Below, one piece after another: positions 1-4,321 of a DNA stretch of 5,369 nt. How positions within the stretch are numbered: the first letter of the stretch is position 1; each line of letters starts with the position of its first letter. The position numbers and the translations under genes are program-made. Origin of the DNA: a virus (Duplodnaviria; Heunggongvirae; Uroviricota; Caudoviricetes); the IMG/VR virus record IMGVR_UViG_2711768070_000016; one strand, written 5' to 3'. The notes under the pieces were generated by a model that saw only the letters and a list, made by a program, of their open reading frames with translations, made no database searches and was not told the DNA's origin.

Positions 1-678
1 AGCCTGAACGAGTCGGTTAAATCAGAGCAGTCACCGCGGGTGGTGCTCTGGGAAATTGACCTGACGGTGCAGGGCGGTGAGCGGTATTTTTTCTGTAATG
101 AGCTGAATGAAAAAGGGGAGCCGGTCACCTGGCAGGGGCGGCAATATCAGGCATACCCGATTGACGGCAGCGGTTTTGAGATGAACGGGAAGGGCAGCAG
201 TGCCAGACCGTCGCTGACGGTGTCCAATCTGTTTGGTCTGGTCACCGGGATGGCGGAGGACCTGCAGAGCCTGGTGGGGGCCACGGTGGTCCGCCGCCGG
301 GTGTATGCCCGTTTTCTGGATGCGGTGAATTTTGTGGCGGGCAATCCGGAAGCGGACCCGGAGCAGGAGCTGAGCGACCGCTGGGTGGTGGAGCAGATGT
401 CAGAGCTGACGGCCATGACAGCCTCGTTTGTGCTGGCAACACCGACGGAGACGGACGGAGCGCTGTTTCCTGGTCGCATCATGCTGGCGAACACCTGTAT
501 GTGGACCTACCGCTCTGATGAGTGTGGTTACACGGGCGGGGCTGTGGCGGATGAGTTCGATAAACCCACCACGGATATCCGTAAGGACAGATGCAGCAAG
601 TGCATGCGCGGGTGTGAACTGCGCAGGAATGTCGGCAATTTTGGCGGTTTCCTTTCCATTAATAAACTTTCGCAGTAA
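1..678 (+). CDS. L: Tail tip assembly protein L (lambda gpL family); 5' end lies outside the window
   Basis: Frame 1 is open from base 1 (no stop in 1-39) through TAA at 676-678. Translation (..VLWEIDLT..GGERYFFCNE..EKGEPVTWQGRQYQ..FPGRIMLANTC..ECGY..CSKC..GC..NVGNFGGFLSINKLSQ) matches lambda gpL as I remember it, including the C-terminal Cys cluster. The ORF track starts it at GTG 40 only because the true start is upstream. Confidence 0.9.
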   Translation, partial: SLNESVKSEQSPRVVLWEIDLTVQGGERYFFCNELNEKGEPVTWQGRQYQAYPIDGSGFEMNGKGSSARPSLTVSNLFGLVTGMAEDLQSLVGATVVRRRVYARFLDAVNFVAGNPEADPEQELSDRWVVEQMSELTAMTASFVLATPTETDGALFPGRIMLANTCMWTYRSDECGYTGGAVADEFDKPTTDIRKDRCSKCMRGCELRRNVGNFGGFLSINKLSQ

Positions 679-734: not shown

Positions 735-1271
735 TCAAACAACCCACCAGTTTGCCTGATTGGATGCCAGCCTTGCAGTTTTTATGGAATTAATTATGCC
801 ATGCTCAAGAGCCTTGTTAGCATCCAAAATGGTCGAGTCTGCTATCAGGGATGCCCACCTAATATGGGTTCCGATGTCGATATTGAACGTCTCAACGAAG
901 CGATCAAGATCGTTATCGAGGCATTTCCCGTACTCTCTCAATCTGGCATGGTCGGCGGCTGGGGAGGCAAAGCACCATAATAGAGGATGTAACAGGAATC
1001 TTGATAATGGGTTTGCGAAACGTTCTGAGCCAGCCAGGAAAACGATATTAGCTATGGATTCAACATTGCTTATGTTGTGAGTTCTAACGGTAACAGGGAG
1101 TGACTTAAGAAAGTTATACGCAGTAAAGCCAGCGGCAGTTTCCCCTCCCTGACTTGATATATGGATATTTAATTCAGTTGCGCCTTGAGATAATGCGGTG
1201 AGACAGTGGTTCTGAAGTTGCCCAACAGTGGCAGTGTTAACGGGGCATAAGAAATGAATTGTGTGCAGCAT
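735..1271 (-). CDS. ClpP-fold (S14-like) serine peptidase, 178 aa, lacking the N-terminal axial-loop region of canonical ClpP
   Basis: Translation contains ..IHISSQGGETAAGFTAYNFL..NVESIANIVFLAGSERFANPLSRFLLHP.., which aligns by eye to E. coli ClpP INSPGG...GQAASMGAFLLTAG...RVMIHQP with Ser and His at the equivalent positions (tentatively Ser72, His95, Asp145). Start ATG at 1271-1269 overlaps the mnt-like stop (TAATG on the minus strand). Confidence 0.7.
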   Translation of the reverse strand: MLHTIHFLCPVNTATVGQLQNHCLTALSQGATELNIHISSQGGETAAGFTAYNFLKSLPVTVRTHNISNVESIANIVFLAGSERFANPLSRFLLHPLLWCFASPAADHARLREYGKCLDNDLDRFVETFNIDIGTHIRWASLIADSTILDANKALEHGIINSIKTARLASNQANWWVV

Positions 1272-1519
1272 TATTTTTCATCCTTACCATACATGGTCTT
1301 TAGCGTCTCAAGCAGCGCCTCTTTGAATTTGTCAGCTTCTTGCTGAGCAAATGACTCAACTGACTTTGGCGACCTATCTTCATCAATCGCGGCTTGCAAA
1401 ATCATGACGATCTCGGAGTTAACAGAGCGACCATTTTTTGATGCTCTGACAGCAAGAGCCTCGCGTAAAGATTCAGGGATTCTTACCGTAGTTGGAGAAA
1501 TTGACACACCCTTTGCCAT
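1271..1519 (-). CDS. mnt: Mnt-like ribbon-helix-helix repressor (82 aa)
   Basis: MAKGVSISPTTVRIPESLREALAVRASKNGRSVNSEIV...LKTMYGKDEK has the RHH N-terminus (beta-strand then ..NGRSxNSEI..) and the length and C-terminus resembling P22 Mnt as I remember it. Start chosen at ATG 1519 (preceded by AAGGTG) rather than the upstream ATG at 1561 in the ORF track. It is divergent from arc-like, as in immI. Confidence 0.75.
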   Translation of the reverse strand: MAKGVSISPTTVRIPESLREALAVRASKNGRSVNSEIVMILQAAIDEDRSPKSVESFAQQEADKFKEALLETLKTMYGKDEK

Positions 1520-1633: not shown

Positions 1634-1786
1634 ATGGAGAAAGAAATAAGTAAGATTTTGGTAAGGATGCCGCAGTCGTTAAAGGATGCTATAGGTAGCA
1701 GGGCAAAGGAAGAGTGCAGGTCGTTTAACTCAGAGGTTATCAAGCGCCTGATAGACAGCTTGAAGAGAGAGGGGGTAATGGTATGA
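1634..1786 (+). CDS. arc: Arc-like ribbon-helix-helix repressor (50 aa)
   Basis: [50 protein letters not shown] resembles P22 Arc (..NGRSVNSEIYQRVMESFKKEGRIGA) in length and motif. Strong RBS GGAGG sits 5 nt upstream of ATG 1634; the ORF-track start at 1598 is a TTG and looks like an over-extension. Confidence 0.7.
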   Translation: MEKEISKILVRMPQSLKDAIGSRAKEECRSFNSEVIKRLIDSLKREGVMV

Positions 1787-1986
1787 GTAAAGAATGTTGT
1801 TTCTGCGGCATTAGCGAATCAGACGCTGATCAAACATACATTTACTCTAAAGAAACAGGTCGGATGCTGTGTAGTGACTGCGTGTTGGACATCATAAGAT
1901 ACAAGCATCTTGGATGTTCTGCCAGCATTAGCAATATAGGTGAAGTATATGAAGGGAAAGATATAACTGATAGAGCAGAAAGTTGA
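1783..1986 (+). CDS. Small standalone ClpX-type C4 zinc-binding-domain (ZBD)-like protein (67 aa)
   Basis: CCFCG..(21 aa)..[11 protein letters not shown] aligns by eye to the ClpX N-terminal ZBD (CSFCGKS...ICDECVDLCNDIIRE): Cys5/6-x-Cys8 and Cys30-x2-Cys33. Start ATG 1783 overlaps the arc-like stop (ATGA); its stop TGA 1984-1986 lies upstream of ant. Confidence 0.6.
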
Positions 1987-2048
1987 AGCCCCAACTGCGG
2001 GAACAGTCAGGGCTTCGGTTGTCAGTAAATCCGTGGAGAAAAACCAAC

Positions 2049-2951
2049 ATGAATAGTATAGCAATTTTAGAAGCAGTGAACACCTCTTACGTACCATTCA
2101 ACGGTCAGCAAATTATCACCGCCATGGCTGCCGGAGTTGCATATGTTGCGATGAAGCCAATCGTTGAAAACCTCGGAATGAGCTGGGGTACTCAGCAACA
2201 AAAACTTATGAAACAACTAGATAAGTTCAACTGTATTCATATGAATATGGTTGCTGCTGATGGAAAGCTTCGTAAGCTACTCTGCCTTCCTTTGAAGAAG
2301 TTAAATGGATGGCTGTTCAGCATCAACCCCGAGAAAGTTCGTGCTGACATCCGCGATAAACTGATTCAGTACCAGGAAGAATGCTTTACTGTGCTGCATG
2401 ACTACTGGACAAAGGGAAAGGCAGAAAATGCACGTAAGAAAACATCTGTTGATGACAGGACTCCGCTTCGTGATGCTGTAAATATGCTGGTCAGCAAAAA
2501 GCATCTAATGTACCCAGAAGCTTATGCAATGATTCATCAGCGTTTCAATGTGGAAAGTATTGAAGAGCTTGATGCATCTCAGATACCGCAAGCCGTAGAG
2601 TACATCCACAGGGTAGTGCTTGAAGGTGAGTTCATTGGCAAACAAGAGAAGAAGCTCAACGGGCTTTCCGCAAAAGAAACAGACAGCCTTGTATGGCTGT
2701 GGGATTATGCCAACCGCTCACAGGCATTGTTCCGTGAGTTGTATCCCGCATTAAAACTGATTCAGTCTGGCTATTCCGGCACATGCTACGACTACGGTCA
2801 TGAGTTCTCGTATGTTATTGGAATGGCGAGAGACGTTTTAATTAATCACACACGAGATGTTGATATCAATGAGCCAGACGGACCAACGAACCTTCTGGCA
2901 TGGGAAAGGCTTAAGAACAAAGAATTGCCGCCTTCACTGCATCACTACTAA
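2049..2951 (+). CDS. ant: Phage antirepressor Ant (P22 Ant-like, about 300 aa)
   Basis: N-terminus [44 protein letters not shown]...[25 protein letters not shown] is the P22 antirepressor N-terminal domain as I remember it. Start chosen at ATG 2049 (GGAGA upstream) rather than the TTG at 1983. Stop TAA 2949-2951. Confidence 0.85.
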
Positions 2952-2969
2952 CAGATTACCAACGAAATG

Positions 2970-2992
2970 ACCCAGCCTCGGCTGGGTTTTTT
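2970..2992 (+). terminator. Intrinsic terminator-like hairpin after ant (stem ACCCAGC/GCTGGGT, loop CTCG, then T-run)
   Basis: Read directly: stem 2970-2976 / 2981-2987, T-run 2987-2992. It is immediately followed by the K RBS AGGAG 2996-3000 and ATG 3006. Confidence 0.55.
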
Positions 2993-3008
2993 ATCAGGAG
3001 TTCTCATG
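2970..3008. repeat. Right boundary repeat (hairpin + T6 + AT + AGGAGT + nn + TCATG), ending in the K start codon
   Basis: Partner of 687-725; see the alignment described there. Confidence 0.7.
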
Positions 3009-3743
3009 CTCTATAGCAATATATTGGCACATGCCCGGCGGTGTGCGCCTGCGGAGTCGTGCGGCTTCGTGGTGAGAACGCCGGAGGGGGAGCGGTATAT
3101 CCCTTGTGTGAATATTTCCGCAGAGCCGGAGGCGTATTTTCGTATTGCGCCGGAAGACTGGCTGCGGGCAGAGATGCAGGGGGAGATTGTGGCGCTGGTC
3201 CACAGTCATCCCGGTGGTCTGCCCTGGCTGAGCGAGGCGGACCGGCGGCTGCAGATAAAGAGTGCCCTGCCCTGGTGGCTGGTCTGCCGGGGTGAAATTC
3301 ACCGGTTCCGCTGTGTGCCGCACCTGACCGGACGGCGCTTTGCGCACGGGGTGACGGACTGTTACACGCTGTTCCGGGATGCCTACCATCTGGCGGGAAT
3401 TGATATGCCGGATTTTCATCGCGGGGATGACTGGTGGCGCAACGGTCAGAACCTTTACCTGGACAATATGGCGGTCACCGGCTTTTACCGGGTGCCCCTG
3501 TCCTCTGCACAGGCGGGCGATATTCTGCTGTGCTGCTTTGGTGCTTCGGTACCGAACCATGCCGCCATATACTGCGGCAACGGTGAGCTGCTTCACCATC
3601 TGCCTGAACAACTGAGTAAACGGGAGAGGTATTCTGAAAAATGGCAACGACGAACGCATTCTGTCTGGCGTCACCGCCACTGGCACGCATCTGCCTTCAC
3701 GGGGATTTACAACGATTTGGCCGCCGCCTCAGCCTGTACGTGA
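3006..3743 (+). CDS. K: Tail assembly protein K (lambda gpK family; JAMM/MPN plus NlpC/P60 domains)
   Basis: ..HARRCAPAESCGFVV.. N-terminus, JAMM motif HSHPGGLPWLSEAD (H-x-H-x7-S-x2-D) and NlpC/P60-type Cys (GVTDCYTLF) and His (NHAAIYCG). Start at ATG 3006 with RBS AGGAG; the ORF-track start 2967 lies inside the terminator hairpin. Confidence 0.88.
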   Translation: MLYSNILAHARRCAPAESCGFVVRTPEGERYIPCVNISAEPEAYFRIAPEDWLRAEMQGEIVALVHSHPGGLPWLSEADRRLQIKSALPWWLVCRGEIHRFRCVPHLTGRRFAHGVTDCYTLFRDAYHLAGIDMPDFHRGDDWWRNGQNLYLDNMAVTGFYRVPLSSAQAGDILLCCFGASVPNHAAIYCGNGELLHHLPEQLSKRERYSEKWQRRTHSVWRHRHWHASAFTGIYNDLAAASACT

Positions 3744-4321
3744 ACACGGCAGCGGAAGCCATTCGCGCCCTGTCGATGCAGATGCCGGGCTTTCGCCGTC
3801 AGATGAACGAAGGGTGGTACCAGATACGTATTGCCGGTGAGGACACGGCACCGGAGGCGGTGTACGCCCGTCTTCACGAACAGCTGGGTGAGGGAACGGT
3901 CATCCACATTGTGCCGCGACTGGCCGGGGCCGGAAAGGGTGGACTGCAGATTGTGCTGGGGGCGGCAGCCATCGTGGGCTCTTTCTTCACTGCCGGAGGC
4001 TCGATGGCGTTATGGGGTACAGCCCTGAGTGCCGGTGGTTTTTCTGCCACCACGATGCTGTTTTCACTGGGTGCCAGTATGATTCTGGGCGGTGTGGCCC
4101 AGATGCTGGCCCCGAAGGCAAAAACACCGGATTACCGCGCAACGGATAACGGCAGACAGAACACGTATTTTTCGTCACTGGACAACATGATTGCCCAGGG
4201 TAACCCGATGCCGGTGCCTTACGGGGAAATGCTGGTTGGTTCACGACGGATATCCCAGGACATCAGCACCCGTGATGAAGGCGGGGGCGGAAAGGTCGTG
4301 GTTATCGGGCGGCAGGGGTAA
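3641..4321 (+). CDS. I: Tail assembly protein I (lambda gpI family)
   Basis: MATTNAFCLASPPLARICLHGDLQRFGRR...QIVLGAAAIVGSFFTAG...NTYFSSLDNMIAQGN matches lambda gpI as I remember it. It overlaps the 3' end of K by 103 nt in another frame. Stop TAA 4319-4321. Confidence 0.9.
   Translation: MATTNAFCLASPPLARICLHGDLQRFGRRLSLYVNTAAEAIRALSMQMPGFRRQMNEGWYQIRIAGEDTAPEAVYARLHEQLGEGTVIHIVPRLAGAGKGGLQIVLGAAAIVGSFFTAGGSMALWGTALSAGGFSATTMLFSLGASMILGGVAQMLAPKAKTPDYRATDNGRQNTYFSSLDNMIAQGNPMPVPYGEMLVGSRRISQDISTRDEGGGGKVVVIGRQG

Follow-up and report, generated by a model that had tools for sequence, protein, structure and literature searches.

A 5,369-nucleotide stretch of DNA from a virus of the Caudoviricetes (IMG/VR record IMGVR_UViG_2711768070_000016; the window in what follows) carries a gene for a truncated ClpP-like peptidase at positions 735-1271 of the minus strand, directly after a gene for an Mnt-like repressor. 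Reading frame, selection, Pfam and PDB matches and a structural model identify it as a real, selected gene for a ClpP-fold Ser/His peptidase. We put the probability at about 0.5 that the product is an accessory ClpP isoform without a docking surface, which as prophage cargo would act through the ClpP of the host in lysogens.

The open reading frame (ORF) encodes 178 residues. Its ATG is the first possible start after an in-frame stop, and an upstream extension is not possible. Comparison with an 80%-identical homologue gave a ratio of nonsynonymous to synonymous substitution rates (dN/dS) of 0.078, indicating strong purifying selection; in more distant pairs the synonymous sites were saturated, and the proportion of changed nonsynonymous sites (pN) was only 0.18-0.33. 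The plus-strand ORF 723-980, which an earlier note on this DNA had considered as a competing gene, was rejected as a real gene. Its pN/pS of about 0.9 was neutral, it was broken by stops in most homologues, and it had no Pfam match, so that the minus-strand frame chosen in the note stands.

The Pfam profile CLP_protease (MEROPS S14) matched the protein with 44.4 bits against a cut-off of 20.2 (E 2e-11), residues 24-165 covering positions 37-180 of the 182 profile positions. An AlphaFold model, for which a 31-sequence family alignment served as input, had a mean predicted local distance difference test (pLDDT) score of 91.9. In comparisons of this model with solved ClpP structures, the template modelling (TM) score was 0.93 for PDB entry 9UXT (38% identity), which is ClpP1 of Pseudomonas plecoglossicida (PpClpP1), and 0.83-0.85 for E. 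coli ClpP; PDB 4RYF was also among the fold matches. A sequence search of the PDB likewise returned 9UXT (E 1.6e-35 over residues 3-175), followed by ordinary ClpPs at E 2.5e-7 or weaker. The ClpP fold, which the earlier note had recognized by eye, is thus confirmed by profile and model. The protein nevertheless scored far below the NCBIfam models for canonical ClpP, with 19.2 against a cut-off of 308.6 for the equivalog TIGR00493 and 40 against 228 for PRK12553, the best NCBIfam ClpP model. Database labels differ: RefSeq names the protein "ATP-dependent Clp protease proteolytic subunit", and GenBank has it as "head maturation protease" in phage phiv205-1. Both labels, ordinary ATP-dependent ClpP and head protease, are probably misleading, and the RefSeq name probably overstates what the protein does alone.

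Ser72, His95 and the SSxGG oxyanion segment are invariant across the 31 members of the family alignment, which are 32-80% identical to the window protein. In a second alignment, to which E. coli ClpP from MG1655 was added, Ser72 and His95 pair with the catalytic S97 and H122, and the GG oxyanion motif aligns too. Opposite the catalytic Asp of the E. coli enzyme (mature D171) stands Ser146; Asp145 is aligned with R170. Within the family, residue 145 is freely variable (D, N, Q, K, S, A, T, C, E or G), and residue 146 is always small (Ser, Ala, Thr or Gly). As judged from these alignments, Asp145 is not a triad residue, and the catalytic Asp of canonical ClpP is absent. Of the Ser72/His95/Asp145 triad proposed in the earlier note, the first two residues, invariant and in register, could be kept, and the third had to be given up.

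The protein begins at residue 38 of the aligned E. coli ClpP precursor (residue 24 of the mature protein), and accordingly lacks the axial loop and helix A as well as the 14-residue propeptide. The loss of the axial-loop segment had been noted before, and the alignment bears it out. The E. coli residues Y60, F82, I90 and L114, which line the hydrophobic pocket for the IGF/LGF loops and for acyldepsipeptides (ADEP), align with Asn35, Ser57, His65 and Asn87, all of them polar. At the C-terminus, a hydrophobic motif, NWWV(x)C, is conserved at residues 173-178 (735-752, minus strand) and is predicted to form a short beta-strand. It is confined to the enterobacterial prophage clade of the family and missing from the Pseudomonas clade. 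One guess is that this motif fills the docking cleft.

PpClpP1, published in PLoS Pathogens in February 2026, is the shortest characterized ClpP and lacks the N-terminal helical region (PMC12900304). It forms a homotetradecamer with an axial pore of 42.7 Å. Its active site is Ser-His-Pro; the first two residues are indispensable, the third is not, and the catalytic efficiency is about 13-fold below that of the canonical paralogue (PMC12900304). On its own, PpClpP1 did not pull down ClpX and degraded neither fluorescein isothiocyanate (FITC)-casein nor ssrA-tagged green fluorescent protein (GFP-ssrA), but together with canonical ClpP it formed a stable heterotetradecamer that bound ClpX and was somewhat more active than canonical ClpP alone (PMC12900304). 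The window protein resembles PpClpP1 in length (178 versus 183 residues), in the same N-terminal truncation, and in having kept Ser and His with a residue other than Asp at the third position. It differs in that this third residue, Pro151 in PpClpP1 at the place of Ser146, is Ser, Ala, Thr or Gly in the family, in being prophage cargo rather than chromosomal, and in the NWWV motif, which the Pseudomonas clade lacks. Sequence, fold, truncation and active-site pattern all place the window protein with the PpClpP1 type. The protein type itself is therefore no longer new, and the view that the window protein is of an unrecognized kind did not survive, given that its RefSeq name is already that of a Clp protease subunit and that a 38%-identical relative was solved and characterized in 2026.

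Secondary ClpP isoforms such as ClpP2 of P. aeruginosa, ClpP1 of Listeria and the mycobacterial ClpP1/P2 are comparable in that a second ClpP exists beside a canonical one. They work through mixed tetradecamers, as is predicted by homology for the window protein. The N-terminal structure that binds ClpX is absent from P. aeruginosa ClpP2 too (cited in PMC12900304). Unlike the window protein, which is shorter, phage-borne and linked to a repressor, these isoforms are encoded by host genes, have full-length or nearly full-length N-termini, and usually carry Asp or Asn in the triad. With canonical E. coli ClpP the window protein shares the fold and the aligned Ser, His and GG oxyanion motifs; it differs in its low identity (20-26%) and in the absence of propeptide, axial loop, helix A and catalytic Asp.

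The gene upstream of the ClpP-like gene (1271-1519, minus strand) encodes 82 residues from the ATG at 1519, the start that RefSeq uses in the P22-like prophage of E. coli MS 21-1 (L001), with a ribbon-helix-helix N-terminus (Pfam Arc, E 1.4e-10) and a C-terminal coiled coil. Its best match among solved structures is the Mnt repressor of P22 (PDB 1MNT, E 2.3e-6), and the mnt-like character ascribed to it earlier proved correct: it is a true relative of Mnt. The ATG of the ClpP-like gene (1271-1269) overlaps the mnt stop (1273-1271) as TAATG, and a Shine-Dalgarno motif, AAGGA (1285-1281), lies 9 nt upstream, within mnt. This indicates translational coupling to mnt and agrees with the co-expression that had been read from the overlap. 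The junction as a whole (1269-1309, minus strand) is conserved. The last 39 nt of mnt (1271-1309), which encode ETLKTMYGKDEK, are nearly identical in DNA across Mnt alleles of 36-100% amino acid identity, and this conserved end supplies the ribosome-binding site for whatever gene follows.

Several unrelated genes make use of the junction. Besides the ClpP-like gene, ORFs of 69, 105, 121 and 193 residues start exactly at it, with a TAATG or ATGA overlap, and further ORFs of 92, 173 and 297 residues begin a few bases past the mnt stop; altogether, at least eight unrelated cargo genes begin at or just after the junction. On the far side, a GC-rich hairpin (687-710, on both strands) lies 3' of the stop of the ClpP-like gene. 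Comparison with L001 and with cargo-less mnt alleles showed that the latter end (KKPT-stop) inside a hairpin of the same sequence. P22 has orf59a in the corresponding place, between mnt and the annotated mnt terminator, with sieA beyond, under its own promoter. The mnt 3' junction has the look of a boundary set by recombination, delimiting a cargo slot in the mnt transcription unit. The shared junction, the swapped genes, the same terminator hairpin and the orf59a gene of P22 together show that the ClpP-like gene is swappable cargo in this unit. Going by this arrangement of sequence elements, which is strong though indirect evidence, it should be co-expressed with mnt, sharing both the mnt transcript and its ribosome-binding site. 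Mnt of P22 is made in the lysogen. From its position between mnt and the mnt terminator, the ClpP-like protein should be made whenever Mnt is. The seven alternative cargo proteins had no significant Pfam match and no PADLOC match, and therefore give no clue to function by association. As a separate observation, some P22-like contigs (L176 and L177) have two or three different mnt alleles in tandem before the ClpP-like gene.

A protein search found 68 relatives, mostly of 178-187 residues, in Escherichia, Klebsiella, Pectobacterium, Leclercia, Serratia, Providencia, Pantoea, Erwinia, Proteus, Citrobacter and Rahnella. The allele of the window is present in 128 of 5426 complete E. coli genomes. 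Copies of at least 80% identity were found directly after an mnt-like gene in all 46 viral contigs that carry them, with Mnt alleles 37-100% identical to that of the window; some of these contigs combine an Mnt of no more than 37-66% identity with a ClpP-like protein of 97-100%. This clade was always found with arc, sar and ant, the other elements of a P22-type immI module. Flanking genes L and K of the lambda type, as in the window, were present in 10 of the 46 contigs and absent from the others. One contig of the latter kind, from E. coli MS 21-1 (L001), was inspected and is a P22-like prophage with the module beside the tailspike gene. The converse survey, starting from Mnt as the earlier note had proposed, gave a divided answer: the ClpP-like gene followed in 35 of 80 mnt-bearing viral contigs and was absent from 45, some of which have a 99%-identical Mnt.

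At 52-75% identity, the family consists of single genes that run opposite to their neighbours and have no mnt or ant adjacent. They lie between lysis and terminase genes in Klebsiella-type and Leclercia-type prophages, between N and the early-left genes in Proteus, or among tail genes. Such sites are typical for independently expressed prophage cargo. Promoter scans upstream of these solitary members did no better than shuffled controls. Taken together, the enterobacterial clade is prophage cargo. One carrier, prophage phiv205-1, has the gene at 98.5% DNA identity; according to a review, this prophage raises biofilm formation and adhesion of its avian pathogenic E. coli (APEC) host, a result obtained by deletion of the whole prophage (PMC10052878).

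The possibility that PpClpP1 itself is prophage-borne was ruled out, as its close homologues (67-88% identity) occur in a conserved chromosomal neighbourhood. The Pseudomonas clade to which it belongs is chromosomal, with conserved non-phage neighbours, namely KGG stress-protein genes and DUF6555. This neighbourhood hints at a stress or stationary-phase role of the Pseudomonas gene, which is not discussed in the 2026 paper on PpClpP1 (PMC12900304).

How might such a protein act? By homology with PpClpP1, the window protein would assemble into rings of seven and into tetradecamers whose pore is wide and open, would be unable to bind ClpX or ClpA itself, and alone would show weak peptidase activity and no degradation of proteins. 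A ring of the window protein would then stack on a ring of canonical host ClpP, and proteins would be degraded in such mixed barrels only. A mixed barrel could still be fed by ClpX or ClpA via the host ring, and would contain a second set of active sites, with an altered output. As for the pay-off, a broad shift in host Clp proteolysis during lysogeny seems to us likelier than control of the phage's own immI switch; candidates are fitness, stress or biofilm behaviour, and interference with incoming phages.

Several observations count against an accessory isoform that acts through host ClpP. The oligomeric state, the heterocomplex with E. coli ClpP and the activity are all extrapolated from one 38%-identical relative, from another genus and a context that is not a prophage. 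Alignment with E. coli ClpP is poor in the handle region, through which the two rings touch, and a fit to the host ring is less certain for that reason. The gene is also dispensable for host and prophage, as an IS5-like transposase gene interrupts it in one contig (with mnt intact) and the copy in the complete genome of E. coli ETEC1749 is truncated to 58%. Expression together with mnt has its own weak points. A scan for the mnt promoter did no better than shuffled controls, and none was identified with confidence. In addition, the minus-strand T-run of the hairpin, seen in P22-like contexts, is absent from the lambda-like copy in the window, where the left joint of the module falls inside the hairpin at about position 688 and has thereby removed the T-run.

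The protein might instead work without any ATPase, as a stand-alone chamber. Ungated homotetradecamers would then degrade peptides or unfolded proteins, perhaps those injected by superinfecting phages, and so bring about exclusion. The lack of the N-terminus that gates the pore would suit this role, as would the wide pore and measurable peptidase activity of PpClpP1 homotetradecamers and the position of the gene in slots for lysogen-expressed accessory genes, with sieA of P22 just past the mnt terminator. However, PpClpP1 alone left both FITC-casein and GFP-ssrA undegraded. Nor did exclusion gain support from searches for known anti-phage defence: in PADLOC-DB 2.0 the ClpP-like protein had no match up to E 1 and its neighbours had none, and no alternative slot cargo is a known defence gene. 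The earlier placement of the protein outside the named defence systems agrees with this result; superinfection exclusion or abortive infection, which the note put forward as examples, is no more than a guess. We consider a stand-alone chamber unlikely.

Somewhat less probable still is a poison or decoy subunit, which would cap host ClpP rings with a ring blind to ClpX and ClpA, lower Clp proteolysis and thus stabilize a ClpXP or ClpAP substrate useful to the prophage. The predicted lack of a docking surface and the low intrinsic activity of PpClpP1 are compatible with a decoy, and mixed barrels would offer one docking face only. A pure decoy, though, would have no need of Ser72 and His95, which are invariant under purifying selection, and the mixed complex of PpClpP1 was more active, not less.

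We similarly doubt, and a little more strongly, that the protein is a dedicated regulator of the immI switch, which would degrade Ant (or Arc) leaking in the lysogen and so back up repression by Mnt. Predicted co-expression with mnt and the constant company of arc, sar and ant in the clade of at least 80% identity speak for such a role. It is at odds with the solitary members at lysis-terminase, N-proximal or tail sites, with the 45 mnt-bearing contigs that lack the gene, and with the unrelated cargo held by the same slot. Proteolytic control of the switch, one of the functions suggested in the earlier note, is weakened accordingly.

A relic or exapted ClpP-type prohead protease, which is how GenBank annotates the protein in phiv205-1, is very improbable. 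The best PHROG match is indeed phrog_94, "head maturation protease" (E 7e-21), and the protein scores with the NCBIfam model Clp_rel_HeadMat. Prohead proteases of the ClpP type also lack axial loops. But the Clp_rel_HeadMat score, 49.3 bits, stays below the cut-off of 120, a scaffold or capsid-targeting domain is lacking, and among solved structures a cellular tetradecameric ClpP comes closest. The gene moreover runs opposite to its neighbours and occurs within immI or at cargo sites, never in a head gene cluster, so that the earlier exclusion of a head-maturation protease by context holds. Finally, although a ribbon-helix-helix gene with a translationally coupled partner is the classic layout of type II toxin-antitoxin systems, a toxin with Mnt as its antitoxin is the least credible of all, because the pairing is not obligate either way (mnt loci without the gene, distant members without adjacent mnt), Mnt belongs to a complete mnt-arc-sar-ant module, and copies disrupted by an insertion sequence keep mnt intact.

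The known ways in which phages act on host proteases are inhibition and the use of adaptors. A prophage with a ClpP subunit of its own, made along with the maintenance repressor, would alter host proteolysis by another route. Searches of the literature on prophage or phage ClpP cargo, or on a Clp gene in immI, returned no paper on such a ClpP in prophages; that temperate phages carry it systematically, in coupling with the lysogeny repressor, is undescribed. A more far-reaching proposal, which we advance only tentatively and would not bet on, is that enterobacterial temperate phages carry a docking-blind ClpP ring as cargo that hybridizes with host ClpP and reprograms the ClpXP and ClpAP proteolysis of the lysogen. 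If so, a virus would be taking over a host protease by supplying a subunit instead of an inhibitor or adaptor, and the ring might serve to exclude incoming phages, to stabilize lysogeny, or to change stress or biofilm behaviour. The family is not rare, and the conserved mnt junction marks a slot with at least seven other uncharacterized genes that are likewise coupled to mnt.

Overall, the window covers tail genes of a lambda-like prophage, namely L, K and I and the start of J. Gene L, for a minor tail protein of the lambda type (40-678, plus strand; Pfam Phage_tail_L, 310 bits), flanks the module on the left, and gene K, also of the lambda type (2967-3743, plus strand; Pfam Prok-JAB and NLPC_P60), flanks it on the right; gene I is at 3641-4321. 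L and K are separated by a 2.3-kb insert, which is a complete P22-type immI module with mnt, arc, sar RNA and ant in the order of P22. The module spans 679-2966 of the window, and a 99.8% identical copy is found in the P22-like prophage L001, there in the classical immI position. With immI of P22 it shares gene order, orientation, the homologues of Mnt, Arc and Ant, sar, and the presence of a gene between mnt and the mnt terminator. It differs in that this slot holds the 59-residue orf59a in P22, which has no ClpP-like gene, that the module lies here between the tail genes L and K and not beside the tailspike gene, and that orf67 is inserted between arc and sar.

The arc-like repressor gene (1634-1786, plus strand) encodes 50 residues from the ATG at 1634 (Pfam Arc, E 8.5e-12; RefSeq coordinates in L001). 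It is followed by orf67 (1783-1986, plus strand), which encodes a small Cys-rich protein of 67 residues with a CxxC...CxxC pattern (phrog_7150, unknown function) and which only some copies of the module have. The idea that the orf67 product mimics the zinc-binding domain of ClpX was not supported: BLASTP aligned 11 residues only (E 0.028), and the best PDB matches were RING fingers (E 0.005). The sar antisense RNA (1981-2048, minus strand) matched Rfam RF00262 with 95.6 bits against a gathering score of 43 (E 2.6e-20). As in P22, the antirepressor gene ant (2049-2951, plus strand; Pfam P22_AR_N, 152 bits, and P22_AR_C, 88 bits) has its ATG, at 2049, immediately after sar.

The divergent control region between mnt and arc (1543-1597, both strands) contains a perfect 12-bp inverted repeat, with arms at 1543-1554 (GATAGCAAAGTG) and 1584-1595 (CACTTTGCTATC). 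The repeat overlaps a promoter-like site for arc-ant, with its -35 element at 1569-1574 and its -10 element at 1592-1597, and one arm covers the -10 element. Probably, the repeat represents the operators of this immI specificity. At the other end of the module, the hairpin at 687-710 forms, on the plus strand, a strong intrinsic terminator directly after gene L, inside the late operon. RNA polymerase would have to be antiterminated there to read on into K, I and J.

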